This document shows, in pieces, positions 8,833-49,890 of a stretch of DNA of 50,138 bases (positions are counted from its first letter, which is position 1; every line of letters starts with the position of its first letter). A program made the position numbers and the translations under genes. A model generated the notes under the pieces. The model was not told the DNA's origin, did not search any database, and saw only the letters and a list, made by a program, of their open reading frames with translations. The DNA is from Rhizaria sp. SCN 62-66 (lineage: Eukaryota): positions 1-50,138 of the forward strand of contig MEDY01000231.1 of assembly GCA_001724265.1 (NCBI GenBank), in the 5' to 3' direction.

Positions 8833-11800
8833 ATGTCTGAATTGCGTCCGTCGTACCTCGACGACCCGTTCTTTGCCGAGACGCCCGTGGCAGTGAACCC
8901 GCTGTGGCAGGGCGACCTCAAGGCGCGCCTCGCAGCGCACAAAGAGCAGCGTAGGCTCGCGGCCCTCGCACGCGGCAGGCCCGTGGCCGCCGCCGCTGCG
9001 CCCGCCGCAGCCCCTGCGCGAGTGCCGAGTGCAGCCGCGCCGGCCGCGCCCGTCGGCAGTGTGTTCGCGGGCACAGCTGCCATCTTCGGCCCCGCCGCGA
9101 CGCCCGCCGCGAGCGCCGCCACGGCTGCGAGTCTGGCTAACAGCAGTGGTGCCTCCGCCTCTGCCTCTGCAGCTGACTCGAGCGCTGCGTCTGTGTCTGC
9201 GGCCGCGATTTACGGCGCTGATGACATTGCGGCCGCTTTTGCGACGGGTATCGTCGCCGGCGCGGGTGTGAACAAGTCGCAGAGCATAGGCCCGATCCCA
9301 GCAGCTGCTACTGCGAGCGCTGCGAGTGCATCTTCCTCTGCGGCGACTGCAGCTATGCCTGCGGTGACCTCCAGCTCGAGTTCGAGCTCTCGTCTAGACG
9401 GCGCACACAGTGAGGCTGCAACCAGTGCAGGCGTCGCAATGAATGACTCGTACACTGTCCACGACAAGGACGACGACAGCCACAGCACCTCCGACGCAGC
9501 AGTGTCGCTGGATGAGTCCACGCTGAGTGACCATCGCAACATGAGCGCGAACAGCATCAACGACTTCCTCCTCGTGGCCGAGAGCCCCATCCTCGCCCCT
9601 CGCGCCCCTCAGCAGCAGCAACAGCACAATCACATGGGCGAAGACAGTGACAATAGTGTCTCTTCATCTGCCAGCACCAACGCCATCGACAGTGACAGCG
9701 ACGACAACGAATTCATCTCGCTGTCGGCCTTTGTCGAAGATGACCCCTATGCGGCGCCCACTGCCCGCGAGTACGCGCGCGCCGCCTACGTCGCCTCGCC
9801 GCCCGGGCGCCCGCCGTGGTGTCCCGCCCCCGCGGCCGCGCCCGCCGCGCCCGCGCTCGCGCTCGCGCACCTGCCTGTGCTCTCCGCCGCCGAGGCCGCC
9901 GTGGCCGCCGCCGCGGAAACGGTCAACCAAAGCAGCAGCGCCGGCAGCGGCTGTGGTGCGGGCGCGGAGCCGCTGCTGCGCCCGCGCGCCGCGCTGCTGT
10001 CTGGCGCCGCGGCCCGCGCGGGGCTGCCGCCGCTGGAGCGGCTGCACGAGGAGGTGCTCGACTTCGTGCAGTTCATCTCGCCGACGCAGGAGGAGCGGCG
10101 CGCGCGCGAGGCCGTGCTGAAGCGCGTCAACGCCGTGGTGCAGTCGTTGTGGCGTGATGCCTCGGTCCAGCCCTTCGGCTCCTCGCTCACGGGTCTCTAC
10201 CTGCCGCGCTCAGACCTAGACCTGGTGCTCACGAAGCCCATGACGGGCGATGAGGCGCGCGAGGTCGCCAAGCGCAAGCGGTGGATCCAGCACAACGGCG
10301 GCCGCGTGGGCGACTGCGCCTTCAGCAAAGGCGTGTTCGATCGGCTCACGCGCGCGCTCGCGGCGCAGGGGCTGGCGCGCGACGTCGAGGTCATCGCCCG
10401 CGCGCGCGTGCCCATCGCCAAGTTCACCGAGCCGGCCACAGGGCTCAAGATCGACGTGTGCATCAACGAGACTGGCGGCGTCGCCACTGCGCGGTTCATC
10501 TTGGAGCACGCGCTGCCCATCCCGGCTTTCCGTCCGCTCGTGCTTGTGCTCAAGCACTTCCTCGCCGCGCGCGGGCTCGCTGAGACCTACGGCGGCGGTG
10601 TCGGCTCATTCCTGCTGCAGCTCATGGTGCTGGGCTACTTGCAGCACCACCCTTTGCGCGGCAGCGTGCGCGACCTGCGTCACCCCGCCACGGCCCTGGG
10701 ACTCGGCGCGCGCGAGGCCGCTGTGCTCGCCGCCGCCGGCGCGCCAGAGGCCGCGGTCGCCGCCGTCGCAGGACTTGCCGCCGCAGCCGCTGCGGTTACT
10801 GCAACCGTCAACCATGACGCGAGCTCGAGCTCCAACTCGAGCTCTGCGAGTGCGAGCGCGAGCGCGGGTGTGGCTGATGACAGCGCTAGCGCCAGTGCCA
10901 GCGCCAGTGCGAGTGCGGCTGCAGTCGGCGCGGCGTCGTCGCTGCCGCCGCTGCCGGTCTCTGACGCCGACAGCCACGCTAACTTGGGCTCTCTGCTGCT
11001 GGGCTTCTTCTCCTTCTACACCACGGACCTCAACTACACTAAGGTTGGGCTCACGGTGCTGCACGGCGGCGCCGTCTTCAAGAAGGCGCAGCGCCGCTGG
11101 TTCAATCCCACGCGCCCCGCGCTGCTATCGATTGAGAACCCGGTGGACTCGGACCACGACGTAGGCGCCAACTCGTACGCCATCGCGCGTGTGCGCCGTG
11201 CTTTCCTGGCCGCGGCCGCCGCCGTGCGCGCGCGCGTGGCGGCCGAGACTGAGGCGTACCTGTGCGTGCGCGGGGCCAAGGCGCGCGCCGCGAGGGCCGA
11301 CGCCGCGCGCGACGCGCGCAAGCGTAGGGCTCGGCTCGCCGCCGCTAAGGGCAACGGCGGCGGCGTGATGGACGCGAAGCAGCGGCGCGCGGCGGCGGCG
11401 GCGGAGGCGTTGGGGCTGCCGTTCGCCGTGGGCAGCGGCGCGCTGGAGGAGCTCGTGTCGGCGAGCGAAAGCGGCAGCGACGGCGACTGTGCCACGCTGG
11501 GCGACTCGGACGACAGCGACGACGACGATGACTCGGTGTACAACCGTCGCGGTGGCAAGAACAACATCGGCAAGCGCGGTGGCAAGGGCGAGCTCACTGG
11601 CACCGTCAGCAACAAGGGTAAACAGCAGCGGAGTGGGGGGAATGCGCGCGACATCCCGATCGCCATCAGCGACACGGACAGTGACGCCGAAGCGGGCAGC
11701 AACCAGCCGCAATCAGTTGGCCCCAGTGACGTTGACGCGTCGGCGCTTGCACCGTCGGTGGTGCCCCCGCTGACGGCCTTCATTCCGTCGAACCCGTTTG

Positions 11801-13059
11801 TGTGGCCCGCGCTGCTGCCGCCGCCATGCGCCGGCTATTCACTCGCGCTGCTCGCCGCGCCAGTCACCTCGTTCGCCGCCCTCAACGCCAGCTCCTCCGC
11901 CCTCGCCAGCTCCAGCTCGAGCATTGCGAGTGCGAGTCAGCCGCTGGGGCAGTACACGAGCGCGCGCCGCGCGCACGCCGCCGCGGCGGCCGCGGGATGG
12001 GCCGCGGCGCCGCTGCTGCCTCTGACGCCTGCGCTCGAGGCCGCGCTGCAAGCGGAGATCCTGCGCGCAGCAAAGAAGGCCCGCCGCATCTACAAGCGCG
12101 CCGCGCGCACCGCTCTCCTCGCCGCGGCGGCTGCTGCTTCCAGTGAGCAGAGTGACCGTGGGCAGCGGGAGGTCACTGTTTCGCTGCCGGTGCACGTCGC
12201 TGTGCTGCCCGAGGGCTGGCTGGCAGCGGCCGCAGCGGCGCCCTCGCTGCTGCAGCTGCTGCTGCCTGTGACGCCCGAGGACATCGTGGGCCGCCACCCA
12301 CGCGGGGCCGACGCTGCCGCCGTGGACGCCGCACGCGTGGCCGCCGCCGCCGCCGCGGGCGGACTCGCCTGGCTCGCCAACGCCAACGCTAATGATGACT
12401 CACACTCTGGCTCCAACTGCCACGGCCACGGCCACGGCAAGGGCGCGGGCGAGAGCGTGAGTCTGGCGGCATGGAGCTCGCCGTTCGTGCCGTTGTGGGA
12501 CGGTGACGCCGACACGGCCGTGGACGTCGAGGCCGAGGAGGCCGGGCGCGCCGCGCTGGGCGCCGTTGCCAAGCTCGAGCGCGCGCTCGCGGGACGCGTC
12601 GCCGCGGCCGACTGGGGCGCGGCGGCCGCAGCCAGGTGGGAGCGCGCGCACAGGGCCGGCGAAGAGGAGGCGGCGCGCGGCGCGGCGGCGGCGGCGGGCG
12701 CGGGGAGCAAAGACAAAAGCAAAAAGGGTAAGGGCAAGGGCGCTGACGGTGACAGCCAGGGCGCTGGAAACGCTGGCAGTCAGGCTGATGTGGACGCCTT
12801 CTGGGCTCAGTACGACGACGAGGAGCTCAATAGCGGCAGCAACAGCGGTAAGAAGGACAAGAAGGACAAGAAAGACAAAAAGGACAAAAAGGACAAGAAG
12901 GACAAGGAGAGTGCGTCTGAAGCTGCCACTGCAAAGAAGGATAAAAAGGACAAGAAGGACAAGAAGGACTGCGAGCACGAGAGCGTCGCCAGCCTCGCCG
13001 CTGCCGCTGCCTCTGCCGCTACTGCGAAGAACAAGGGCAAGGACAACAATGCACATCAA

Positions 13060-13100
<41 letters not shown>

Positions 13101-14445
13101 CCAACCTAAGCACCAACATCACTAGCACCAGCAGCATATGCACATCACGATTGACTCCGCTGCGGCGAACCCGAACAGCAACAACAACAACAGCAAGAAC
13201 AAGTCTACTGTTGCTGTGACGAAGGACGCAGCACACGCAAGCTCTCGTGCGAAGCGCACCGCCGCCGCGTTTGCGGGCGACACTAGCAACGCCCGTCGCG
13301 GCGCTGATGCCAGTGACGACGACGATGATGATGACGACGACGACGACGACGATTTTTTCTCCGGCACGACGTTTGGCAACACCGATCTCGGCGATCCCAG
13401 CCACCTCTCTTTGCGCAGGGGCGGCAAGAACAGTGGCAAGAGCAGCGACAAGGGCGCAGCGCGCGTCGTCGACCTTAGCTCGGACTCCGACTCCGCGTAT
13501 GAGATCTACAGCCACCCGCCCTCGGCTGCAGCTGGCGCCCACGGTCACGCCCACGGTCACGGTCGTGGCGGCGGCAAGGCGACTGAGGTGGTGACGATCG
13601 ACGAGGACTCTGACTCCAACTCTGATGTCAAGGCCTCGGCCGCGAAGCGTGCAAACAGCGGCAAGGGCAAAGGCAAGGGCAGGAGCAGCAAGGACTCTGA
13701 GACCGAATACACCGGCAGCGACGACGACGACGACGACGATGACGCGAGTGACGCGTACGAAACCGATGACGACGACGACAACAGCGGGGGCAGGTGGCAC
13801 CACGAGTCCGACAGTGAAAGCGCCTACAGCGACGACGAGGACGATGACGACGATGACTACGACAGTTAGCTCCATGACTCTCGCAGCGGTGGCGGTCGTG
13901 ACGGCAGTCGCGGCGGCAGTCGCGGCGGCGCCCGCGGCGGCAGCAACAGCGGCTCCAGTCGCAACGCGTACCAGCAGCTGCCGCAGTACCAACACTATCA
14001 GCAGCAGCGCACCATCAACGGCATCGGCGGCGAGCGCCAAGGCCGGGCCCGCGGCGGCCACGGCAACGGCTACGGCGGGTATGACCGTAGTGACCGCAGT
14101 GACCGCGGCCGCGACCGCAGCCGCAGTGGGAGCTGCGGTCAGAACCAGAGCGGCAGCAACCGCGACGCGCGCGGGCAGAGTCGCGACGGCCGCGGAAACG
14201 GAAACGGAAACGGCAGCAGACAGCAACAGAGCCAGCCCGGTCAGGGCGGCAACCGCGCCCACAGTCGCGACCGCAGCCACAGTCGCGACCGTGGGCATGG
14301 GCACAGCAAGGCCGGCGAGGACTTTAGTGGCACCGGTGACGGCAAGCAGCGTAAGGGCAATGCGGGTCGGTCGGAGCAGGCACAGGCGCGGCGCAATCAG
14401 AAGAAGCAAAAGGCCAGTCGGGACAAGAAGTCACGCATGGGCTAA
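8833..14445 (+). CDS. TRF4: Non-canonical poly(A) polymerase, Trf4/PAPD5/TENT4-like; 1870 aa if TAG codons at 13123 and 13867 are read as sense
   Basis: Motifs LHEEVLDF, FGSSLTGLYLPRSDLDLV (GS + DxD), ARVPIAKF, IDVCIN, GGVGSF, NLGSLLLGFFSFY and LSIENP. ORF 8833-13125, ORF 13138-13869 and the downstream RGG/RS-rich segment share one frame, separated only by TAG. The frame ends with TAA 14443-14445 at the GC-to-AT boundary. Confidence 0.88.
12850..12969 (+). repeat. KKD tripeptide repeats (AAGAAGGAC-type units) in the Trf4 C-terminal region
   Basis: Translates to KKDKKDKKDKKDKKDKKDK...KKDKKDKKDKKD with synonymous variation between units. Confidence 0.85.
13123..13125 (+). other. In-frame TAG codon 1 (Trf4), context QQQNQPKHQHH*HQQHMH
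   Basis: CAC CAA CAT CAC TAG CAC CAG CAG CAT; the frame stays open to the next TAG at 13867. Confidence 0.8.
13867..13869 (+). other. In-frame TAG codon 2 (Trf4), context DDDDYDS*LHDSRSGG
   Basis: GAC AGT TAG CTC CAT GAC; 191 further sense codons follow before TAA at 14443. Confidence 0.75.
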
Positions 14446-25841: not shown

Positions 25842-28800
25842 TTAGACGGTGGTTCCGCCCAGATAGTTCTCGTCTCCTTGCGCACCAAGCCCAAGTCCCA
25901 ACCCGAGCCCCAGCCCGAGCCCGAGCCCGTCCCCGTCGTCGTCCTCGTCGTCGTCGCCGTCGTCGTACAGTGCGCCGCCGTGGCCGCCGTGGCCGCCGTG
26001 GCCGGGAGACCCTGCAGCGCGCCCGTGGCCGCCCTTGAGCGCGCGCCTACTGCTGCTCACGTCGAGTCCCCCCTTGCGAGGAGCACGCTTCGCGCCGCCG
26101 CCCATCACGCCGACAACGCCCTGCGGCTACGACGGCGGCTGCGGCTGTGTTTGCACACTCACCTGCTGGCCGACAGCGCCGGCAGTGGCGCCAGCCCCGC
26201 TGCGCGCCGCAGCCACCTTGCTGCCCGCACCCGCCGCCGCAGCGGTGCCGACTGCCGCCGCGCCCGTCGCGGTGTCTCTCTCGTCGCCGTAGCCGTCGCC
26301 GTCATAGTCCTCGCCGTAGTCGCTACCCACGCTGCCGCCGCGGCCCCTACCCACGATCGCGCCGTGGTCGCTGCGGCGCTGGCCGCGAGCGAGGCCGAGG
26401 CCGCGGCGCGCGCTGCGGCGGCGGGCGCGGCAGATAGCCTTGACGTCCTTGACGACGAGGCGCACGATGAGCAGCGCGGCGACGCAGCACGACGCCATGA
26501 GCAGATAAAACACGTTGTCCCAGCCGCCCTTGCCGTCGTCGTCATCGCCACTGCTGCCACCCGAGCCGGCGACGAGCGCGACGAGGATGCCCTGCGTGGC
26601 GGCGCCCGCGGTGCCGAAGCCGTCGATGATGCCCGAGACGGCGGCGAGCGCGGTGGCGTCGTCGCCCAGGTCGGGGTGCGAGCCCAAGTCCGCCGAGACG
26701 GCCGTGGTGATGAGCGCGTAGGGCCCGTTGACCATGACGCCCAGCAGCGTCATGATGGCGATGGTGACGGGGACACCGCCCAGGTGCTCGGCCGTGACGG
26801 AGCGGAACACCAGCAGCACGGGAACCGTGAGCAGCAGCGCCGAGGAGCTGATGAGCGCGGGGCGGCCCGTCTTATCGCTGAGGTAGCCGACAACGACGCC
26901 GCCGACAATGCCGCCCACGTCGAACGTGGTCGACAGGTACCCCGCGACCGAAGACTGGTAGCCCGTCGACTCGAGGTAGTAGGGCAGCCAGAAGAGGAAC
27001 GTGTAGGCGACGAGCTTGGTGAAAAAAAGCGTGAACGAGTACTCGAGCACGCCCGGCAGCAGCAGCGCCGCGAGGAACGTCACGTTCTTCGCGGGGCCCT
27101 TGCCCTCAGCGCCGCCCGCGGCGGGAGACGCCGGCACCACGACCGTGTGCGCGGCGCCGTTGATGCTGGTGCTCATGCTCGCACTCGGACTCGCGGTGGC
27201 GGTCACGGGCACGCCCGTCGTCGAGGTGAAGGCGACAACGGCCTTGCCGTGGCCGCCGCGGCCGCGGTCGAGCGCCGCGGCCGCGTGATCGGCGAGCACG
27301 CGGGCCTCTTTGCTGCCGTAGCCGCGGCCCCCGCCCTCGACGCCGTCTTCCTCCTCCTCGTCCCCGTCCTCGTCCGCGCCCTCGCGGCCGCGGGGGCTGT
27401 TTGTTCTAGCGCGCGCGCCGTAGTTGTGCACGGGCGAGCCCCCCGCGCTGCGGACCACGCTCGCGCCGGAGTGACGCGCGCGGCCCAGCGTCTTGGCCTG
27501 GGTCTTGCCGCGCCCGCTGCCGTTGCAGTTGCTGTTGTCCGCGGGCGCGGACGCGGGCAGCGAGGCGGCGTCGAGGTCGGCGCCCAGCGCGTCGATGTCG
27601 GTCGCGCTCGCGGGCAGCGCGTGTCCCCCGCCGAGTTCCTGTGCGAGCGCGCGGTCGATCTTGCCCTGCGCCTCCTCGGGCGTGGGCGTCAGCGCCAGGA
27701 GCGTGACCGCGGCCGTGAGCACCGAGACGAGGGCGGGGAAGGCGAAGGCGTACACCCATCCAGGGGTGCCGGAGGCCGCGGTGGGCTTGGCGCCGAGCGA
27801 GAGCGCCGAGGTTGCGATGACAACGCCCAGCACGTTGCCGATGCTTGTGTGCGCGTTCCAGACCCCCATCACGCAGCCGCGGCTGCCCTTGGCGAACCAG
27901 TTGGACATGACGGCCACGACCGCGGGCCAGCCAGACGCCTGCATGAGCCCCGTGAAGACGTTAGCGACGGCGTAGTAGGCGAAGGCGTGGATGTCGAGGA
28001 CAAAGCCCAGCGGCCACATCGCGAGCCCGACGCCGACACCGAGCAGCCCGAGCGCGAGGAACAGCCTCAGGTCCGAGCGGTCGGCGATGTGGCCCGCGCC
28101 GAAGAGCCCCACGGCATAGGACGCGAGGAAGAGCGTGTCGAGCAGCCCCAGCAGGCGCTTGCCCGCCGCGCCCACGAAGGGCTCCCAGTTCAGCGCGGCG
28201 TCGGCGTCGGCGCCGTCGGGCACGAAGGCCGACTTGACGATCGAGTAAGGCCGGCGCGTAACGTGATAGACGGCGTACTGCAGGAAGGTAACGAGCCACG
28301 CCAGCAGCTGGTAGCGGCGGTAGTGGCGCGCGAACGCCTGGTCAGACTCAAGCCGCGCCGCGATCGCGGCCGTCGCGGCCGACGTCACTGGCGGTGCCGT
28401 CAGCGAGGGCGCGGCGGCCGAGTCGAAGCCCAGGCGGTTGTCGTCGTCCTTGTCCTTGGCGTCGCCGTCGCCAGCGTCGTCGTTATAGCCAGTCGCGTTG
28501 CTGTATCTGTCGCCGTTGCTGTTGCTGTGGGTAAGGCGCGGACTACTCGAGGCCGCGGCCGCAGCTGCAGTGGCCGCAGTTGCGCTGTTAGGAAAAGCGG
28601 GCACAACAGCGCGGCGCTGCTTCGCGCTGCTCGAGCTGTTAGCGCCAGCCCCGACACTGGCACGCTTGTGCTCCTCCTTGTTTTGCCCATACACACCATT
28701 GCTGTGAACATCATCGTGTTCGTGCTCGTGGTCAAGCTCGTGGGTCGCAACGCGGCCGGCGCTGCGGTGCCCGGCCGCGCTACCGATGCCGTCGCCGCCG

Positions 28801-31040: not shown

Positions 31041-34000
31041 TTAGCTGCCGGTGCTCTTGGTGATATGTCTCCACGCAGAGAAACGTAGCGCAAAGTACGC
31101 CAAAATGCGGACGCCAATCATGAGGCCAATAACCGCAAAAGCGTTTCCGGCGTAGTGGCTGCCGCTGAGTGAAAATAGGTGCATGACATCGCTGCCGTTG
31201 ACCATGGGACAGAACTGCTCCATCGTGCCGTCGTCGAGTGGCACCGTGATGTACTCGTGAGGGTCGCAGCCAAGCTCGAGTCCGTTGAACTCGACTCCCA
31301 TCACGGACTCGAACATGAACTTCTGTGGTGACAGGACCTGAAGCCACTTGAGCCAGCCTACGCACCATGCAAATAAAAAAAAGTGAATACAGATATAATT
31401 GTGAGGAATTGACGTGCGTTAGCGTAAACCCAGTATATGCTAAGTAGCTTTGCATTTCACAACGTATGTGTGACTGAGCTTAAAAAATTTTGTCTTAAAG
31501 AGAGCATATACACAATCAACTGAGTATTACTTGTGCATCCTTACCTGGCATCGTCTCGTTATGTGCAAAGAATCCCGTGACCATCATAAACGGCACCATA
31601 ACAATTGGCGACAGCATGAGCGCTACCGTGCGATACGGCACGAGCGCACCAACAATGAGTGCGTACGAGTGCGTGGCCTGTCCGGTGAGGATCAGCGCAA
31701 AGATGTAGCCGACAAACTTGTTCATGTCGCCCTGAAGTCCGACCATGGGATACGCAAAGGCGCCGAAGATAATCGCAAGCACGGTCTGCAGTGCCATATC
31801 AACAAAAGTGCGCCCCAGGAAGTATGCCGACGTCGAGTAGATGTGCTTCTGCTTTTCGCGCAAGAAAAGCGCGCGCTCCTCTGTAAACGTGAGCACAGCG
31901 GCAACAATAGTGATAAACGCCTGGATCGACGTCATAAAGAACAGAAACCCCACGCGTGCGTACACACTTTGCTGCTTGTTGCCAGTCTGAAAAAAGAGCA
32001 GCCCGACAAAGACTGACAGGAACACGTTGACGGCCACACGCATGACTGTGTTCATCGGCTGGCGGATCACATGCAGAAACGTGCGGTGTGACAAGTGCTT
32101 AAGCTGGTGCTTAAACGCGAGCTGCGGCACGCCCGGAGTGATGTGCTCCGTGCCGCCTGCCCCGGCCTCACGGTCAAGGTGGATTCCGTAGGCGCCCTCT
32201 AGCCCCGCTACAGTAGACGCTGAGTTGCAAAACTCGCCCGGCGCCCCCAAGCCCGCGGCGCCGCCAACACCACCACTGGCGCCCGCACCGCCGGCGCCGC
32301 CGCGGCCGTCCTCGTGGTGGCTAGCGCGCAGGCGCGGAATGTAGTTTGTCAAAAACGGCGTTAAACGAGGGTCGCGCGGCACAGGCCGCATGAGGTACTG
32401 CTCGGCAACTAAGTTAAGCCGTGTGTCCTCGCGCGATGCAATGATGCGCTTTATTGCCATGCTTGACAGCGATGTGAACGGGTAACGGGCTTTGCGAAGT
32501 GCGAGAAGACCATTAACAGTCTTTTTAGCGGCGCTATTACCGTCTGCATTGTCGTTCTCGTCCTCCTCGTTAATGCTGCTTGAGTTCACTAAAGCTGCTT
32601 CCGTGACTACGCTGCTCTTGATGCGCAACTTCGACTTAATCAGCTCAACAGACTTGTGCCGCGGGTCGTGCGGCGACAGCGCGGTGGCCGTGCCCTTCTG
32701 CTCCGCGACAATGAGATCGCGCAGCATGTCGGTTGAGTTCTGCTGCAGCACGTTGAGAAAGAACTCGGCCGGGTTTGCCGACGCCGGGCAGTTGTAGCCG
32801 AGCCCAGTGAAGTAGTCAAGCGCGCGCGGCGCGGGGCCGAAGTACGCGAGCTTGCCGCGCGACAGCAGCACGAGTGTGTCGAACATGTCGAAGATCTTGG
32901 TGTTGGGCGAGTGAATTGTGAAAATGACTGTACGACCAGTGCGCACAAGGTCCTTAAGCACCTTCATCACCTTGACAGCGGTCGTCGAGTCCAGGCCGGA
33001 CGTCGGCTCGTCGAGAAACAGGATCGCGGGATCGCGGATCATCTCGACGCCGACCGACACGCGCCGCCGCTGGCCGCCAGAGATGCCGCGCACAAACGCA
33101 GTGCCAATGGGCGTGTCAGCGCAGTCGAGCAGATCAAGCTGCTTCAGAATGCGTTCCACACGCTTCATCTTGCGCTCCTCGCCAATGGCCTCGGGCAGTT
33201 GCATTTTGGCCGCAAAGCGCAGGGTCTCGCGCGGCGTTAGCGTGCCCAGCAAGACGTCTTCCTGCAAGTCTCGGTGTTGCGTAGCAAATAAATAAGAGTT
33301 AAGGGAGAGCTGTAAGTGCGTACACAAAAATTAAGTTTTACGAATAACGTCATTTCATCGGTAACTTGATCACACTTTTGGTCATGCGTACCTGCATCAC
33401 GTATCCTGTAAGCGAGCCTAACTCCGTCTCCGACACGCGCGTGCCGTTGAGCAGCACATTGCCTGTCGAAATTCCGTGTTTTTTTAGGTACTCCTCCTCA
33501 TTGCCCCTGCCACCAGCTCCGCCAATGCCGTTAGTAGCCGCGCCGTCCTCGTCTTCATCAGACCACGCCCCGCCGCCTGCGGCAGCTGTGCTGCTGGCAG
33601 CGGCCGCGGCCCCAGGCTTGCGCTTGCGCATGTCCGTCGGTTTGAGCTGGATGCGGCCCGAAAGCGCGTTGAGCAGCGTCGTTTTGCCCGCGCCGGACGC
33701 GCCCATAATGGCGACCATGCGCCCGGGCTCGATGACGCCGCTAAGCCCGTCAAGAATTGTTTGCGGCACGTTCTCCATCGCCTCACGGTTGCACATCCAG
33801 CTCAGCGCCGGGCACGCCGAGCCGCGGCCGCCAGAGTCGTCCGCGCCGCCGTCGGCGTCGTCGTCGTCATCCTCGTCCCAGCGCCCGATCGGCGCGGCAA
33901 AGTCGTCGACGGCGTCGTGGCCGTGACCGTGGGCATTACTGCTGCTGATTGTGCCGTTTGTGCTGTTCTTGTCCCAGCGGCGCGCACCGCTGTCGTGGCC

Positions 34001-37000
34001 AACTGCAAGAAGGCTTGGTGTGTCAGGAGTAGCAAACGCGCTTGCAGCAGCACGATAACGCGCGGCAGCGCTTGGTTTTGCACCAGCGCCAGTACCAACA
34101 GTAGCGGCGCTAGCGCCTGAGCGGCCCTTACCCCTGTTAGTGCTTGTACCGTTCGTGGTAGCTTGCTCTTGCACGCTAAGCTCGTGAGTAACACTCTCGC
34201 GCCCGCGGTTTTTTGGAAGGCGTTTGATGACGCGCACTGAAACGTTGCGGAATTCAATTCGCGTTGGCTCTTTGACACTCCAGCGCTCTACTTCCTGCGG
34301 CACCGTGTGCATCTGCGCGTACTTGGCCGCCAACTCATGCACGTCGACATGCCTGCGCACGCTCACGTCGCTATTGTCCGCCCAGTCGGGCGCAGTGGCG
34401 ACGGGCGTAATCGCAGCAGCCGCAGCGCGCGCGGCGGCAACCTCGGCAGCGGCCTCGGCGGCGGCGACGGCAGCGGCAACGGCACGGTCGGTCGCCTCGC
34501 GCTCCTCAGCTTCGCGGCGCAGCTTGACCTTGAGATACTGCTCACCGGCATCGCTCTTGTCGCCATCGCTGCCAGCGTCGTCGTCAGTGCGACTCACAAT
34601 CTTGTCGCTGCCGTTTCCGTCAACATCCGTGTCGCTGTCGCTGAGCGCATTGGCGTGGCGCCGGGTCTTTGCGCTTGGCTTTTCGCTGCCAGCGCTTAAC
34701 TTGGCAGCAGCAGCTGCAGCCGCAGTGACTGGCTTCTTGACGGCGAGCGCAGTGTTATTTTTTGTTCCGTGGGAGTTAGTGTTGTAGCGCTCGTCGTCGC
34801 TTGTTAGCTCAACGTCGCTGCGGAGAGACCGTGAGCGTGACCGCGAGCGCGACTGCGGGTGTGCGCGTTGTGACTTTGTTGTAATGCTATTAGCAACAGC
34901 AGGCGTTGGGCGCACAGTGCAAGACGCAGGGGAGCCAAGCGAGAACTCAACTTTGTCACCAACCTTGACATCAACAGCATTGGTTGTAGAGTCGATGTTT
35001 GCGCTAAGGGCAGCGGCAAGGTCTTCTGCCGCAACCATGCTGCCGGTGCGCCCGCGCTGCTGTTGCCTTTGCTTTGATCCGGCCTTGGTCGTCTTGGTGG
35101 CAGCGTAGCTCGGCGACGCAATAGAAGCAAACGCGCTTGCGCGCGACTTGGGGCTCAAGTCAGAGACGTTGCTGCTGCCGCGGACAATGCGAGTGGCACT
35201 GTCCATAGCACCTTCTTCTTCGTCATAGTCGTCTACATCCTCTTTAGTGTTCACTGTGTTTGCACAAGAGTTCTTCGCAGCAGTAGTTGACAATCCATCA
35301 CTTTTGACGTCTTTGCTACTAACAGCGCTCGCAATGGCGTTGCTCTTGCTCTTGCTTGTGATGTTGCTCTTGCTGTTTAACGCAACGCGGCTTGAGACTA
35401 ACGCAACTGCTTCGCTTGCAAGCTCCTGCTGCTTTTGCTTTCCGGTGTCGCCAGTCCTGAGTCCGGGTGTCGCGACTGCAGGTCCGGTGCAACTTGGCAG
35501 AGCACGAGTTGACGTAGAAGCCAAGGTGGAGGCCGGTGCGGAGGACAGGGCTGAGGTGGAAGCTGTGGCTGCAACCGCCGCGGTCGCAGCCGCGCGCTCT
35601 CTCTCGGCCACAGCCGCAGCAACGGCGTCACGCGCCCTTGCCACCGCATCAGGCGTCTTTGAGGGTGCCGCAACAGCAGCCGCACTTGCGACAGCGGGAG
35701 TAAGGCGCGTGCTTGCAGGAATAGCGGTAACATTGGCGGTGGCAGCGCGGGTTACAGCGGCGGTATTAGTGGTTGTGACAGCCATGGGATCCGCAAAGAC
35801 GTCGTCGTCTTCCTCGCTCGCGCCGTCTCCGCGGGTGTTCTGTTGCTCGAGCTGTTGCTTGAGGCGGTACTGCTCAGCGGCCGCAGCCTTTGCCGCTGCG
35901 CGTTGCGCGTGCTTAAGCTGCTTCTTGATGCGCTTGGAATTGACAGCAGCTGCAGCTGTACCGGCACCAGCAGTGTAGACCGCGTTTGGCGAGTCTGCGT
36001 CAGATTCCGATGCAGTGCTGGCCTTGACACTCTTGTCAGTGCTGTTGTCAAAAACTGGAATGGCTGTTACGGAGGGGCGCGTCGACAAACCTGGCATCAC
36101 CGCCAGCCCGCCGAGCGCGGGTCCCGTTGTATTCACTGTCACTGGCAGAGGCGCCGGCATTGCAACTGCGCCGAGGCCCAAGCCCAGGCCAAGACCGGCG
36201 GCTCCTGGTGGCGCGTAGAAGGACGGGGGTACAGCGCTGTAGCCGCCGCTTCCAACGCCCACAGCCGCGACCGCGGGTTGGCCCAACGCAAGCGCGATCT
36301 GCGTGGGCGTCGCGCCGCGGCTGACGCTGCCGCCCGCGCTGGCGCTATTGCCCGCGGCCATGTGGCCGTGGCCGTGTGCGAGTGAGGCGGCGAGCGGCTG
36401 CGGGTACGCAAGGCTGCTGCTGCCGTGCGCGTGGCTGTGCGCGGCGCTGGCCGGCCGGCTGAGCGCGGCGGGAGCAAGGGACATGGCCGCACCGGTAGCA
36501 AGGCTGAGGCTATCGCTATGTCCGTGGCGCGACGGCTGCTGCTGCTGATGGTGCTGCTGCGGGAAAGTCAGCACGTTGTTGTTGCCGTGGCTGAGGCTGC
36601 TGCTTTGGCTGACAGGGCGCGCCGCAAGGTGGCCGTGGGCAATGACAGGCAGTGCAGTCGCGTGAGCCAGCGACGGCGGCAGCGAGTCGCCTGACTGCAG
36701 TGGGAAAGCTACTGCGGGTGCGGCTGTGCCATACCCAAGAACAGCTTGAGTACCTGCGGCAGTCACGGGAACTGGTGGTGTTGGAGGCGAAGCAGCAATG
36801 TTATTATTGCCCAAAATGTTCGCGCTGAGCGCAGATAAGTCATGCGCAAACGCACTTGACGGCCGCCTCTGCTGTGCGTTGATGTTTCCAACCACGGCAA
36901 GCGGCAGCGCGAACTGAGGCGGCTGCTGCTGACGCGTGTTGCTGGTGGCGCGCGGAGACGACGGCGCCGATACAGAGCCGACGCCGCCAGCGCCGTCGCC

Positions 37001-37600
37001 GCCGTGTCCGTGGCCATGGCTGCCGGTACGGCTGTGCGCGCGTGTGCGGCTGTGCGCAAGTGACGGCGGGCCGGCGTGGGCGCTACCGACGACGACAGCA
37101 GCGCCGCTGCTGATGATACTGGTGTCGTTGGTGGCGTAGTCGGCTGTGTAGCCGTACACAGCTGAGTTACCGAGCGCAGCGGAGTGACCGTGAGCGGAGC
37201 CAGGCATTGAGTGCCGATAACTTAAATCGGTTGCGCTAGTGCCAGTGATAACACCCGCGCTGGCGTTGGTGCTGACGCCTGCGTTCGCAAGGAGCAACGA
37301 CTGCTTGTCGGCAAACGGCAGCCCCGCAGCGGGAGCAGGAGTCGCTGAGCGAGATGCGATGTGCATGTTGTACAAATCGGTCGCTGATGCAGAGGACGAA
37401 GACGAGGACGCGGGCGAGCCGGGCCGGGAAACAGCGCCTGCGTTGTTAGCGCCGCTCGCAGTGTTGCCGTTAGTTGCGGAGCTGCCCGTGATGCTGGAGA
37501 AGGCGGGGGTCGGCCCGCCGCCGCCGTGCATTGTAGAGCCCTGGCGACGGTGGCGGTTGCTTGCAGCAGCCGCAGCCGGCGCAGAAGCGGAGGGGTCCAT
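31041..37600 (-). CDS. ABCG (White-family) half-transporter A with a very long disordered N-terminus, exons 37600-33392, 33261-31545, 31357-31041
   Basis: Walker A GASGAGKT, Q-loop GYVMQ|ED, signature ISGGQRRRVS, Walker B LFLDEPTSGLD, TIHSP, NPAEF and a C-terminal TMD. Introns 33391-33262 and 31544-31358 preserve frame; TAA stop. Confidence 0.93.
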
Positions 37601-38416
37601 AGCGCGCGTCTCGGCGGAGCAGTCCGATTGACGCGTTATGCACTGAGACTGAAGAGCGCTGAAAGCAGACCTGAAGAGGGGCTGTCAAGGAAGATCTGAA
37701 GCACGTTCAACGCGTTAGCGTAAGGATATTATTGTGAGTCGTTGTTGTAGACTACAATCAACTTAAAAATGTGGGAAAACAATGATTTTTTTTTAAGATA
37801 GGCAAGATATGAGTCGACACAAATGAGGAAAAACGAGGAGTAGTGGGAGTTGTTGCAGGACGATCGCGGATCGTTTGAAAGAGTCGATACACAATAAAAA
37901 CATATGTCTCTCAAAGTTATATGCTGGTAAAAGATAAACACAACAAAGACATAACGTTTCTATGAGGTATAACTTGAAAATCACACAAGTATATGATGAA
38001 CATCTCGATTTTTTTCGGTGTAGGTCAGGCTCGCAGGCAGATTTTTTGCCTCACCGCTATTGCTTCCGTGCCCCTCGTGCTCACAGTCGACATTTGAAGC
38101 TAAGCCACCCAGGCACACAAAGGAGCAGCAGCAACAACGTCTTCAAGTCACTCAACTTCAAATCCATCTTCTACTTCACAGCTCCGTTGTAACGCTCTTT
38201 CTTGCAACTTGAACAAAATTATGTTCGGTAATGCACCCCAACAAAATGTTGCTTTCTCACATGCTGCCTACATTGCCCCGCCCTGGTCACTTCTAATTCC
38301 CATGCTTCAAGTTGTTCTTAACCTTAGCGCAGCCTCTTCTTTCTCCCTTTATACCTACAACGGCTGCTTCCTGGTGAACAGCGCGCGTTGCTGCTGCCAC
38401 TGTTCCTGAATCCGCA

Positions 38417-40101
38417 ATGCCAACGCTGTCCTTTCACAGCATCACCGTTTCGGTGCCCGACATCAAAGGTGCGCGCCGCTATCTCCCCGCCGCATGCGTC
38501 TCCAACGCCAACCGGCGCGAAGTATTGCACTCAATCTCTGGCAAGTTCCCTCAAAAGGGCATCGTCGCAATCATGGGCCCGTCCGGCTCCGGCAAGACCA
38601 CGTTCCTCAACGCCGTGAGCAACCGCATGGCAATCGGCGGCTCCAGCGGCGTCAAGTGCTCCGGTGCTGTGCGCGTCAACGGGCGCGAGGTCGACCCCGA
38701 GTTCTTTTACTCCAAGTCCGTCTCGTTCGTCCCGCAGGACACGTGTCTCTTCGCAGAGCTCACGCCGCGCGAGGCTATCCGCTTCTCTACCACGCTGGTC
38801 TACCCCACGATGTCGGCGCCCGCAGTGGAGGCCAACGTCAACAGCACGCTCGCCGCGATGGGGCTCGGCAAGTGCGCGGACACGCCGGTCGGAAACGAGA
38901 TGTTCCGCGGCGTCTCGGGAGGCGAGCGCAAACGGTACGAACACACGTTTGATTAAAAAAAGCACTCCATTGGGATTGCAGCTTAATGCCTTTGAAGTGA
39001 CTTGAAGTCTGACATGCTCGCTTGACACGTCGCTTTACATGTACTGCAACATCCTGTGACTGATTGCAGCAACTTGAAACCAATATTACTTAAATGGCGC
39101 AGGTGTGAGCAGACACATCTACAAACAAGCTAACAGATCTGATTTGTGAACTGTTCTTGCATATGTTCTAGCACGAGTATCGGCGTCAACATTGTTAACA
39201 ACCCGTCGGTGCTGTTCCTTGATGAGCCAACCACAGGTCTCGATAGTACGTCACTTTGTTCTTACGCGCAAACTTAAAGTTCGAGCTTGAATATCTGAAT
39301 ATACATCTTATATGCATCCTGTATTGCTTTGACTCTCCTTGTAGCCGAGACTGCCGCGATGGTTGTTCGTTCGATTCAGAACATCTCCGGCTCCCGCCCC
39401 TCCACGAACGCAAGTTCGAGCTCGAGCTCGAGCTCGGGTTCCAGTTCCAGCTCCAGCTCAATCACCTCAACCGCCCCGCCGTCGTCCGCCGCGTCCACGG
39501 CTGACTCTGAGGAGGACGGCCGCATCGTGATCATGACCCTGCACCAGCCGTCGTCGGACATCTGGGACATGATCGACCACCTCGTCATCCTGGCGCAGGG
39601 CTACGTTGTCTACAACGGGCCCGCCAAGGACGCCATGGACTTTTTTGTCTCCATTGGCTTCCGTCGGCCCACACACATCAACCCCGCGGACTACTTCCTC
39701 GACATCGTGCAGTGCGAGGAAGACGACGACGACGCCAGCGCCGCCTCAGCCTCCGTCGCTGCGGCGGCGGCGGTGCCGCAGATGCCTGCGCTGCCCGGTT
39801 CCTCGGCTGCGGCTACGGCAGCGGCGGCGGCGGCGGCCAGCGCGGCGGTTGTTGCGCGCACCAAGGGCTCCAAGAAGCAGCGCGCGAAGTTTCTCGCGAC
39901 TGCGTGGCGTCACCACGAGAAGCTGCGCCGTGCGCCGCCCCCGATCCCCAGCAGCAACAACAACAACATCAGCAGCAGCACTGGGGCTGGGATTGGTTCT
40001 GCCACCTTGAGTGTTACCAGCGCTGCGGCGCCGGGGCGCGGGGCGGCAAGCGTGGGTGCACTGATGGGCTGGGACAACGGCCGCAGCGGCAACGCCGTCA
40101 C

Positions 40102-40132
<31 letters not shown>

Positions 40133-41740
40133 GCTGTCGGTGGTGGCAGCGTGACCAACGTCGTGAAGGACGCGCGCAGGGCCAAGCTCGAGGAGATGGT
40201 GCGTAAGTACAACGAGCGCATGCAGCAGCAAGCCGAGGACAACGGCGACGCGCTCGACGAGGAAGAGGACGACGGGGGATACGGCTATGATGAAGCGGCG
40301 TACGTCAACACAGCGTTTTTCGGAGATATCTCGCTTGTTTCTTGAATAGTTTAAACAATATTCCGCAAATGTAAAAACTATTTATTTTTACATTTGAATC
40401 TATTATTTGTTTTTAAATTTTAAAATATCTCTCAAATTCTGAAACGTTGATTTGATTTCTGGCGATCTAAAAAAATATCGGCCGAAATTAACTTTCATCA
40501 CTATCTTCTCACATCTTGACATGATGACTTGTTTTGCGCGTTCACAGTGCTCCCAATGGCTCATCGTTAGCCCCTTACGGCAGCGCCTTGTCTACCCCGG
40601 CGCAGGCGGTGAAGGGCACGTGGAGCCACGAGCTCAAGACGCTCACCGCGCGGTCCTGGAAGACGTTCTCGCGCACTCGGTACGTAGGCGCTGAGAGTGA
40701 ACCAGCGCTGTAACATTTGAGCCCAGTGCGCCTTTGCCTTGAGTGAAAAAATCCACTGAATTACTGAGAGCTCTATTTGTGCACATTTGTGAGCTTATGC
40801 AACTTGAAAAACTTGATTCTCACACTTACACTTTGACGCCAATTCTTGTTTTCACCACAGCCTGATGATCCCAATGAAGCTGGTGCAGATCTTCATCACC
40901 GCTGTGCTTATTATCGGGCTTTTTTCCCCATTTGGCTTCGACCAGATCTCGGTGCTGAACCGCACGGGCTGCATGTACCTCGTCATCATCGTCCAGATCT
41001 TCGCCACTGTGCTCTCCGTCGTCATGCTGTTCCCAGCGGAGCGCGGCGTCTACCTCAACGAGCAAGCGCAGCGACTGTACTCGGTGTCGTCTTACTTTGT
41101 TAGCAAGCTCATCATTGACCTGCCAATCCTTACCCTGACCATCTTTGGCTTCTGCCTGCTGGTGTACTTCCCCGTCGGCTTCCAGAGCGACTTCGCACGC
41201 TTCCTGCGCTTCTTCTTCGTGCTCGAGGGCGTCGCCATCTGCGGCCACGCCATGGGGCTTATTGTCGCCGCCTGCGTTGCCTCCCCCGCCATTGCCGCCC
41301 TGCTCGCCCCCATGGCCATCGCGCCGTTTATTCTCTTCTCGCACATCGCCATCCCCGGCGACCCTGACGCCAAGATCATCGGCATCCTGCGCCCGTTCCA
41401 GATATTTTCCCCCTTCTGGTGGGGGCTTGACGCGCTGGCCGTAACAGAGTTTGCGGGGCTCAAGCTGCACTGCACCGACGACCAGGTGTACGCCGTGCCC
41501 TCAGTCGAGCACGGGCTGCTTTACATGTGTCGCTTCGTGTTGGGAGAGGAAGTCCTAATGAGCTACAGCATCCACCTGGGCGCCTTCGCGCCCTCGCTCG
41601 TGTACCTGTTCCTAATTGCCACCATGCACGTCGTCATGTCGGGCGTGCTGCTCAAGGTACTCTCGCTGCGCGTCGCTAAGTGCGTGCCGATGGAGCCGCC
41701 GCAGGCCGCCGTCAGCGCGCCGCGCCTCGTGCGCAAGTGA
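38417..41740 (+). CDS. ABCG (White-family) half-transporter B, exons 38417-38934, 39172-39245, 39345-40299, 40548-40679, 40861-41740
   Basis: Walker A GPSGSGKT, FVPQD, VSGGERKR|TS, LFLDEPTTGLD, TLHQP, NPADY and a TMD with FPAERGVYLNE. Four GTACG-AG introns with consistent phases; TGA stop. Confidence 0.93.
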
Positions 41741-47432: not shown

Positions 47433-49890
47433 TCAGTCCCACTTCGTGCTGCGCTCCTTGTCAGCGTAATGCTTGGCCCAGTAGGCCTCCCAGAAGCGCG
47501 CGCGGTACGGCGCCGCGGCCGTGGGCGCCGCCGCCGAGGGCGGGTGGAACCAGTAGTTGACCGCCATGTGGCCCGGGCCGGCCGGACTGGCGGCGGCCTC
47601 GCTCTCGGAAGCACTCGCCGCCGCAGGCACAGGTGCAGGCGCGGTCACAGTCTCGGCCGCGCTGTTCGGGTTGCCGCCGGCGCCAGAGCCAGCGCTAGCG
47701 CTGGGGGAGCAAGAGGTGACTTCGTGAAACCAGCCGGCGGGGAGGTACAGCGCCTCACCGGGGGTCATGTACACCACACCTAGAGCGTCGTCAAGTCGTG
47801 GAGAGGCGGACATGAACGCACAGATTGGAGAGAAAACGATAAGAGAAGAACATCAAGAAAACAAGAAATAAGCAGACAGTCATATCACAATATGCTGCGA
47901 TTCAGGTAGATATGCGACAATACGTCGCTTTAGGAAGCGTGTTTCGATGATATAGTGCGTACCCTTGTTGGCCTCGAGAAAGTCTGCATACTCTTCTTTC
48001 CACTCAGGCTTCATTCCGAACACGTCATCGAGCGTGATGACGTCGTCAAGTTCCTCCTCCTCCTCGTCCGCCGCCACCGCAGTGGTAGACTGGAGCTTGC
48101 GGGCGACCTCACGCACAAGCATCTTGGCCGACGTCGCAGGAGCCTGCGCCAGCAGCAGCGCGCGCGGGATGCCAGAGAAGTGCGGGAAGATGTGCGACTT
48201 CTTGGTCTCGTCGGCGCCGGCGTCGGCCTTGGCCTTGGCCGCCGCCTGCTTGGCCTTGGCCTTGGCGCTCGCGCTCGCCTTGACGGCCGCGCGCTTGCCA
48301 GTCGCAGGCCCGTCCTCCGCGTCATCGTCATCGTCATCGCCATCGTCGGCGTCGGCGTCAGCGTCGGCGTTGGCGTCGGCGTCGGCGTCGGAGGCGGGGT
48401 CGGCGCCGTCCAGTCCGTCACCGTCAGTGTCGTCGCCGGAGTCCATGTCCACGATGTCGCTACACAATCCGACGGAGTGAAGAGTTTACAGTGAAAATCA
48501 AAGTGAAAAAGATAACGAAAGCAACAGGTATTAATTAGAAATGATATTATTGCACATCTTGAACTTGATTTCAACTCGTTAAGAGAACAGTTACAGTTGA
48601 AGAATGACGTATGATTCGACGTACGCATACTCCATCTCGAGATCCATCGACAAATCAATCGCGGCCTCCATATCGCTCTCCAGGGCCTCCTTCTCCGCCC
48701 GGGCCTTCCCCGCGCCCTCGGCGTCCCCGGCGGCATCGCTCTGCGCAATCTCCGCGTCGTGCGCGGCAACGGCGAGCTCGAGGCGGCGGACCTCCTTCTT
48801 GAGAAAGCGCTTGAGGATGGGCGCGGGCACGCCCTCGGGTGTGATGGCGCGATTAGACGAGTAAACCAGCACACCCGTCGGGTGAACGCGTGACACCAGG
48901 CCTGCGAGGGGAGGAAGAACGCGCGATTACAGAAAAAACGCATCGCAAGAGAACTTCGTGAGTTTGATTGAAATGCATTTGATTACACGGAATTTTAAGA
49001 GGTACGTTAAATATAAATTGAATACAGCTATAAAGCGAATGTCGGCAAGCGTACCTCGCGTGTGCATCTTGCCCGCGTCCCTGGGCGAGAAGATCTGGAA
49101 GCGCTTCGCGCCGCGCAACAGCAGGTAGAGGTTGTCGTGGAAGTCGTGGTGCAGCCCACTCGACGCGCCGTCCTTGGCCTGGCCCAGCCACACGTTGAGC
49201 TGGTACGGCACCAGCGGGGCGAAGAGTCGCGGGCGCAGCGGGAAGTCGTCCGCGAGGCGCGTGAGCGGGGAGGCGAGCAGCGCTGGCAGGTCCGAGCCCT
49301 CGTAGTCCTCGGTCTGGCTGGTCAGGTAGTAGAACGGGCAGTTGTTCTCGACGTGCGTCAGCAAGTCCTGGAAACGCATCGGGATGCGTGGGGCCGACTC
49401 GCCAAAAAAGCTCTGTGAAAAGGGCACATATATAACGTAATATTACGAAATGGTGAGATGAGGTCAGAGAGAAAGCATCGATAGAAGATGAAGACCAAGT
49501 GAGAAAACGGACGTGAGCTGAAGCGAGCGACGACATGTACATAGGATGAGCGCAAGAGAAAAGCAATAACGCGTTGTCGCTATGTACCTTAGTAGATGTG
49601 CGTTGCTCGACCTGCACGGTGGCGCCTCCGGCAACGGTCTTGAGGTAGTCGTTGCTCCATTTGGCGAAGTTGCAGAAGTCTGGCGACTGGAGCGTGTTAA
49701 GCAGGATGCACGGCTTGCGCTGCGCCACATAGTCGTTGAAAAACGCCTAGGGGGTCGTCTGAAGCACGTCCACGCGGTCAATTGACCAGGTGGAGGACGG
49801 AATGGTGAAACCCTTGTAGGAGCGAGCCACATCGGCCTTCTTGGGCTTCTTCGTCCGCAGCGGCTGCGCTGCGCCAGCACTGCGCTTCAT
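47433..49890 (-). CDS. JmjC/cupin-8 Fe(II)/2-oxoglutarate dioxygenase, exons 49890-49588 (contains an in-frame TAG), 49412-49055, 48901-48625 (or 48631), 48459-47963, 47779-47433
   Basis: YKGF...IDRVD...TP*AFFNDYVAQRKPCIL, KWSNDYL, YYLTSQ, NVWLG, SSGLHHDFHDNLY..LRGAKRF, LYLPAGWFHEV and HMAVNYWFHPP. The HxD...H triad is intact. Four frame-preserving introns; TGA stop. Confidence 0.92.
49747..49749 (-). other. In-frame TAG codon 4 (JmjC codon 48), context IDRVDVLQTTP*AFFNDYV
   Basis: ACG ACC CCC TAG GCG TTT TTC, 47 codons downstream of ATG 49890 and inside the conserved cupin-8 N-terminal block. Confidence 0.85.

Follow-up and report, generated by a model that had tools for sequence, protein, structure and literature searches.

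Probable use of UAG as a rare glutamate codon in the nuclear genome of Rhizaria sp. SCN 62-66

Introduction

The closest described relative of the code reported here is that of exLh, a member of Sainouroidea (Rhizaria) in which UAG encodes Leu (Panek et al. 2017, PMC5304391). In exLh, 384 UAG codons were found in 71 genes and the release factor eRF1 carries the change L69A, while Guttulinopsis and Rosculus probably use the standard code (PMC5304391). This study concerns contig MEDY01000231.1 of Rhizaria sp. SCN 62-66 (positions 1 to 50,138 of the forward strand; this whole stretch of 50,138 nucleotides is referred to as the window), in which a gene for a Trf4/Trf5/PAPD5-type non-canonical poly(A) polymerase is interrupted by two in-frame TAG codons. 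The reading preferred here, with a probability of about 0.8, is a sainouroid nuclear code in which UAG would be a rare Glu codon and UAA and UGA would terminate, brought about by a Glu-type tRNA with anticodon CUA, tRNA(CUA), and an altered eRF1.

Other codes reassign UAG alone. It is read as Gln in Iotanema spirale, Hartmannula sinica, Trochilia petrani, and Protocruzia tuzeti, as Leu in phyllopharyngean metagenome-assembled genomes, and as Ser in Scotinosphaera (PMC11687900). UAG encodes Glu in Oligohymenophorea sp. PL0344, where UAA encodes Lys, UGA is the sole stop, and 10 tRNA(CUA) genes are present (PMC10553269). In peritrich ciliates and Blastocrithidia, both UAA and UAG encode Glu (PMC11687900, PMC12153298).

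The Trf4 Gene and Its Reading Frame

The polymerase gene (8833-14445, plus strand) is a single open frame of 1870 codons with TAG as sense. It begins with ATG at 8833, ends with TAA at 14443-14445, and is interrupted only by TAG at 13123-13125 and TAG at 13867-13869. The nucleotidyltransferase palm (PF22600/PF01909, amino acids 404-555, positions 10042-10497) contains GSS...SDLD at 10177 and KIDVCINE at 10447, and the Pfam PAP-associated domain (PF03828, amino acids 717-775) lies at 10981-11157. The gene therefore has each feature used to recognize Trf4/PAPD5: the palm, the PAP-associated domain, and the catalytic Asp. Its top match in the Protein Data Bank (PDB) is yeast Trf4 (3nyb, E 2.9e-40; runner-up 1e-19). 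The palm and PAP-associated domains and the catalytic Asp motifs are shared with the known Trf4/Trf5/PAPD5 (TENT4) proteins, but at 1870 amino acids the product is much longer than these relatives and contains low-complexity inserts, which are typical of this genome.

A polyQ and Gln/His tract (13057-13122) lies directly upstream of the first TAG, codon 1431, which has a Gln-like context and was probably derived from CAG. It is followed by an acidic low-complexity segment of 247 codons (13126-13866). The second TAG, codon 1679, closes an Asp/Glu tract and is followed by an RGG/RS-rich tail with a basic end, 191 codons in length (13870-14442). Both TAG codons are predicted to encode Glu. The GC content of third codon positions in frame is 0.77 in the acidic segment, 0.80 in the RGG/RS tail, 0.82 in the gene body, and 0.37 past the TAA, where overall GC drops to 0.32.

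Retranslation of 13057-14445 reproduced the features listed in an earlier note made from the sequence alone: polyQ-NQPKHQHH*HQQH, poly-N, poly-D, HGH, DDYDS*LHDS (asterisks mark TAG), the RGG/RS tail, and the basic end before TAA. The note had counted 440 codons past the first TAG; the frame is indeed open to the TAA, but 439 codons lie between. The codon-aligned antisense open reading frame to which it had appealed exists (12400-14430, minus strand, stop to stop, 676 amino acids); being a shadow of the sense frame, it gives only indirect evidence. As a gene, this antisense frame is unsupported.

The tail behaves as coding sequence. Only 6 of 2000 dinucleotide shuffles lacked an in-frame TAA or TGA (mean 5.4). 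Ten letter differences between public contigs and the window were listed, and of the six isolated differences within the coding sequence that were scored, four are synonymous and two are not (three clustered at 9869-9876 and one beyond the stop were left unscored). A strain difference within the tail, at 14436, is synonymous in the sense frame, and a 9-letter gap in two tail records keeps the frame. Contigs of a polyA RNA run (X5), whose library may contain DNA, match 13409-13602 and 13936-14271.

A local cause could be an assembly error, a pseudogene, a separate downstream gene, or an intron at 13755-13869. Both TAGs are unchanged in contigs of runs X3, X4, and X6, which come from three studies, with 0 other letters at either codon; an assembly error is therefore not the cause. 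The candidate intron is 115 nucleotides long and begins with GTACG, resembling genuine donors of this genome. Its pyrimidine share before the AG is 0.33, compared with 0.67-0.77 in 9 of 9 reference introns, and its removal would leave the first TAG in place. Record 15 of run X4, which may derive from DNA or RNA, reads across it unspliced (among 15 of 289 joints listed). The intron was rejected, and local causes as a whole, taken with the Leu reading considered below, deserve next to no credence.

With UAG as sense and eRF1 competing poorly for it, Trf4 would be read through and made as one 1870-amino-acid protein that includes the acidic segment and the RGG/RS tail. A role of this tail in RNA binding or nucleolar targeting is conceivable. 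The Trf4 gene is simply the place where the altered code becomes visible.

Use of TAG and of True Stops in the Genome

The organism is a wastewater protist with a 34.9-Mb eukaryote assembly of 714 contigs (G000). A sample of 929 kb in 133 stretches, including the window and equal to 2.7% of the genome, was scored for coding signal by means of a Markov model that had been trained on frames free of TAG. This model superseded a codon-model candidate list that was dominated by antisense shadows.

Coding persists past 20 of 43 TAG codons that follow clearly coding sequence, compared with 1 of 97 TAA and 0 of 82 TGA (threshold 6). A coding signal on both sides of the stop was found for 36 TAG, 2 TAA, and 2 TGA. 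Gene ends were tallied where a run of 80 or more open codons gives way to noncoding DNA. Among 96 such stops without a donor-like motif there were 52 TAA, 41 TGA, and 3 TAG; inspected by eye, the three TAG transitions correspond to a tRNA gene, an intron, and a frame that is probably antisense, and none is credible as a gene end. Transitions with a donor-like motif comprised 25 TAA, 21 TGA, and 4 TAG. In this sample, UAA and UGA remain terminators, and UAG is not used as one.

In-frame UAG occurs within conserved coding sequence of the genes for eRF1, Thg1, Ubc6/J1, SUV3, a cupin, a USP5-like protein, an MRH protein, a Dicer-like protein, and five kinases. In the window, two further in-frame TAGs lie on the minus strand, one in the C-terminal tail of an MFS transporter gene (26127-26129) and one at the start of a Cupin_8/JmjC domain (49747-49749; homologue column E 34, Q 12, K 10, and R 10 of 82). 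UAG has almost certainly been reassigned to sense throughout the genome. The earlier note had preferred reassignment to a long 3' untranslated region, two leaky read-throughs, or an intron, and the genome-wide stop tallies, together with the tests on the Trf4 tail, strongly support that preference.

Sense TAG is rare. A number of frames in dynein and kinase genes, thousands of codons long, contain none in their matched part, and searches with the AAA, ABC, SDR, and tRNA-synthetase families returned no TAG. TAGs that proved to be splice acceptors or intronic were left uncounted: 6 of 11 kinase cases, the DEAD, kinesin, myosin, and Ras cases, both dynein and both new kinase cases, and 2 of the 3 in helicases. 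Matches to SNF2 that contain mixed stops form no part of the TAG evidence.

UAG might instead still be a stop, crossed by leaky or programmed read-through, with the TAG in eRF1 acting as an autoregulatory switch. This would fit the rarity of sense TAG (36 clear sites in 929 kb), the single-copy tRNA(CUA), the C that directly follows 17 of the 36 TAGs, and the retention of NIKS, E55, and YxCxxxF in eRF1. It conflicts with the tally of 0 credible TAG gene ends among 96, with TAG inside Thg1, eRF1, Ubc6/J1, SUV3, and five kinase domains, and with the presence of a cognate tRNA, and it is very hard to credit.

The tRNA with Anticodon CUA

One tRNA(CUA) gene was identified by pattern search and ARAGORN (G000:C84:76008-76080, minus strand; Rfam 58 bits). 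It is single copy by BLAST, has a short variable arm and a downstream T-run, and shares its contig with kinase and kinesin genes. The first tRNA pattern was not enriched when used alone (12 matches, compared with 42 in the control), and 1 of the 12 loci yielded a CUA tRNA.

The closest tRNA of the organism itself is tRNA-Glu(CUC), identical at 47 of 73 positions without gaps and scoring 68 vs. 46 for the next, among 34 other distinct sequences. The acceptor ends also resemble those of its own tRNA-Glu: their pattern has 10 matches in the genome, namely tRNA(CUA) itself, eight Glu(CUC), and one Glu(UUC), and the control has 0. From the predicted fold, tRNA(CUA) has U11-A24, U13-G22, A46, and no base 47, all of which belong to the determinants of glutamyl-tRNA synthetase (GluRS) in E. 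coli (PMC9976931). Public matches are mostly tRNA-Glu, including 5 of the 5 E. coli rows shown and 12 of the 16 annotated rows from a phage collection, with weak E-values. The tRNA is unlike the organism's tRNA-Gln genes and is without the long variable arm of class II tRNA-Leu. No tRNA with anticodon UUA fits the Glu-type acceptor pattern; of the 506 Rfam candidates, 63 were scored. Genes for a cytosolic GluRS, an organellar GluRS, and a protein resembling glutaminyl-tRNA synthetase (GlnRS) are present, as labeled by sequence reading.

An actinobacterial plasmid tRNA-Glu comes nearer to tRNA(CUA), with 54 of 73 positions identical, including 20 of 20 in the D-arm, than do the tRNA-Glu genes of the organism itself, at 47/73 and 46/~73. 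A bacterial or mitochondrial source of tRNA(CUA) is possible, a question that 73 bases cannot settle. A further proposal is that a tRNA-Glu of bacterial or organellar origin founded the code, with decoding perhaps still a Glu/Gln mixture and the UAG of eRF1 perhaps tuning eRF1 levels. It is rather unlikely. If true, a code change would be seen early, in a clade whose relative assigned the same codon to Leu.

The search for phage or viral tRNAs that combine a Glu-type D-arm with anticodon CUA returned none. The sole match to this pattern in the GTDB genome collection is a tRNA of an Anaerolineae bacterium (G001, L184:192-267), which agrees with the protist tRNA(CUA) at just 45 of 73 positions. 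It may reflect an amber suppressor or recoding in that bacterium.

The Residue Encoded by TAG

The TAG in Thg1 aligns with E77, which is Glu in 4 of 4 PDB sequences and is one of three conserved active-site carboxylates (PMC3701042, PMC6471195). Searches for Thg1 homologues gave no result. The TAG in eRF1 falls at human E107, a column with E 106, D 10, and V 1 in 117 homologues. Log-odds summed over 12 domain sites are E 7.8, D 0.8, and Q -1.0; without the eRF1 and Thg1 sites, they are E 3.0 and Q -0.5. Two more sites, in a kinase insert and a Dicer-like helicase, gave no usable column, and the columns at the kinase, Ubc6/J1, MRH, USP5, SUV3, and ubiquitin-like sites are variable. A Gln column occurs at 1 of the 12 sites, in a weakly constrained ubiquitin-like copy. 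Taken with the tRNA, these sites suggest that UAG probably encodes Glu.

Leu, as in exLh, would suit the grouping of the organism with sainouroids. It scores -11.6 over 10 sites, no UAG was found at a conserved Leu, and tRNA(CUA) has no long variable arm. This reading shares the negligible standing of the local causes above.

Several observations weigh against Glu or against the wider reading. Highly conserved TAG sites number just two, and the TAGs of MRH, USP5, and SUV3 align with Y/H/other, C, and S/N/D, respectively. At looser cut-offs, where noise is higher, the two-sided coding contrast narrows to 66 TAG, 34 TGA, and 23 TAA. None of the RNA contigs among those listed spans a TAG. The closest eRF1 relative, a sequence from JGI (P0004, 84% identical), has Val at position 107. 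The neighbor-context score over 36 TAG sites is +13.0 for Gln and -11.8 for Glu; it assigns 18 of 19 control codons correctly, the exception being AGA, scored as Ser. A strongly Gln-like context was found at 9 of the 36 sites, compared with 3% of GAG and 32% of CAG codons, and a mixture fit of TAG contexts is best near 0.9 Gln-like. TAG contexts are thus unlike those of GAG and GAA. Finally, the ubiquitin-like copy carries TAG at a position occupied by CAG in the ubiquitin of the organism itself.

That copy (L185:1-897; G000:C681:2700-3596, plus strand) is fused to a Peptidase_S74 domain and lies in AT-richer DNA. Because it has no ATG and several other changes, it is weakly constrained, and it may be a mobile-element or pseudogene copy.

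The context scores, the mixture fit, the ubiquitin-like copy, and the position of the first Trf4 TAG in a Gln/His tract would all suit a simple Gln code such as that of Iotanema, Hartmannula, Trochilia, and Protocruzia. Such a code would place Gln at the conserved carboxylate of Thg1 and in an eRF1 column where none of the 117 homologues has Q. The sole tRNA(CUA) found does not resemble tRNA-Gln, and the ubiquitin-like copy is weakly constrained; Gln as the assignment is most improbable. The earlier note had implied Gln by expecting CAG or CAA in relatives. Its reassignment stands, but the body of tRNA(CUA), Thg1 E77, and eRF1 E107 suggest Glu. The basis of the Gln impression is nonetheless real, in that many TAG sites lie within Gln/His-rich tracts.

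Ambiguous decoding would accommodate both signals, with conserved sites favoring Glu and contexts favoring Gln. The Glu-type tRNA(CUA) would compete with near-cognate tRNA-Gln(CUG), or GlnRS would charge part of the tRNA(CUA) through U35. One tRNA(CUA) faces at least five tRNA-Gln(CUG) loci. A GlnRS-like gene exists, and a perfectly pairing tRNA normally outcompetes near-cognates, which counts against ambiguity. E. coli amber suppressors made from other tRNAs are often glutaminylated (PMC9976931). The contexts can also be accounted for by origin: most TAGs would stem from CAG by transition and survive where the tract is disordered, and the Ser-like contexts of AGA show such a source-codon effect. 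Ambiguous decoding is judged improbable, and under the preferred Glu reading the TAGs in Gln tracts would be tolerated CAG-to-TAG changes.

Release Factor eRF1

A search with the eRF1_1 domain identified one eRF1 gene and one Pelota-like gene, the latter labeled by sequence reading. The eRF1 gene (L044; G000:C63) carries a sense TAG in exon 2 at codon 107, which is also present in a JGI contig. This TAG could provide feedback on the level of eRF1, although a single case can be chance.

The protein was aligned with 117 homologues, three fused or duplicated matches being left out. It differs at T32S and G57S, positions at which T and G are invariant in 117 of 117, and at T58K, where T occurs in 116 of 117 and K only in P0004. 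E55, NIKS, YxCxxxF, and L69 are kept. T32 closes the pocket at the third base and T58 begins a codon-lining motif (PMC4605324, PMC5681627), and the three changes would be expected to weaken recognition of UAG. P0004 has T58K in common with the protist and keeps T32 and G57; it may represent a stage preceding the code change or one parallel to it. The eRF1 tree gave no named neighbor.

Lineage of the Organism

The best named matches of CDC48 are chlorarachniophytes. In a FastTree phylogeny of CDC48 (70 sequences, 814 columns), the organism joins Guttulinopsis vulgaris with support of 0.999; this is one gene, and long branches are possible. The tree points to membership in Sainouroidea (Cercozoa). 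The polyubiquitin insertion test for Rhizaria failed, with no polyubiquitin among 23 matches.

The 18S rRNA gene is very divergent. It occupies 4.4 kb (L031:1501-5945; G000:C706:4459-8903) and contains several large insertions resembling group I introns, one of which has a stretch that may correspond to an endonuclease motif of the His-Cys box type. The N-terminal third of ubiquitin is divergent (L186, L187-L190; G000:C3, C168, C182, C445, C594), and the forms seen were limited to ubiquitin-L40 fusions and short-tailed single ubiquitins. Runs X6-X10 account for small shares and are uninformative on habitat.

Other Loci

One long frame (L128:2376-4013, plus strand; G000:C44) contains at least seven clustered in-frame TAGs, far above average, and is either a relaxed gene or a mis-called frame. 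In the window, a head-to-head pair of ABCG-type transporter genes occupies 31516-41740; the N-terminal region of one of them is very long and of low complexity.

Discussion

The sequence itself shows that TAG is used as sense, that the sample lacks gene ends with TAG, that a tRNA(CUA) gene is present, that eRF1 is altered, and that TAG occurs at conserved Glu positions. In the mechanism proposed for these observations, cytosolic GluRS would charge the tRNA-Glu-bodied tRNA(CUA) with Glu, this tRNA would pair with UAG and not UAA, and eRF1 with T32S, G57S, and T58K would compete poorly for UAG.

The code would be the second non-standard code in Rhizaria. Within one small clade, the same codon would seemingly have gone to two different amino acids in two captures; since Guttulinopsis and Rosculus probably keep the standard code, separate captures in exLh and this organism are likely. 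Such a double capture would offer a natural test of codon-capture against ambiguous-intermediate models. In contrast to exLh and Iotanema, both the gene for the tRNA and an eRF1 altered at three pocket positions are known here, so that the manner in which eRF1 would give up UAG yet retain UAA and UGA is testable in yeast. The system may also be of use for amber-based expansion of the code in eukaryotes. Annotation with the standard code truncates eRF1, Thg1, and Trf4. Scaled up roughly from the 36 sites of the 929-kb sample, more than 1000 codon sites would be affected genome-wide.

The organism resembles exLh in clade, by the CDC48 tree, in that UAG alone is reassigned, and in that genes end in UAA and UGA. 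It differs in that UAG would be Glu rather than Leu and is much rarer. In eRF1, T32S, G57S, and T58K occur with L69 kept, whereas exLh has L69A, and tRNA(CUA) was found here but is not available for exLh. Iotanema eRF1 is likewise altered at T32 (T32G; PMC5304391). UAA is kept as a stop in common with the other UAG-only codes (PMC11687900), but none of these uses Glu, and the lineages are unrelated.

The proposed use of UAG for Glu with a tRNA(CUA) derived from tRNA-Glu recalls PL0344. There, UGA is the sole stop and 10 tRNA(CUA) genes are present, whereas in the present genome a single such gene was found and UAA is the most frequent stop. Peritrichs and Blastocrithidia share UAG for Glu and differ in that UAA also encodes Glu (with a dual role in Blastocrithidia). 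No nuclear code with UAG as Glu and both UAA and UGA as stops appeared in the literature searched, a search that most subscription papers lay outside.

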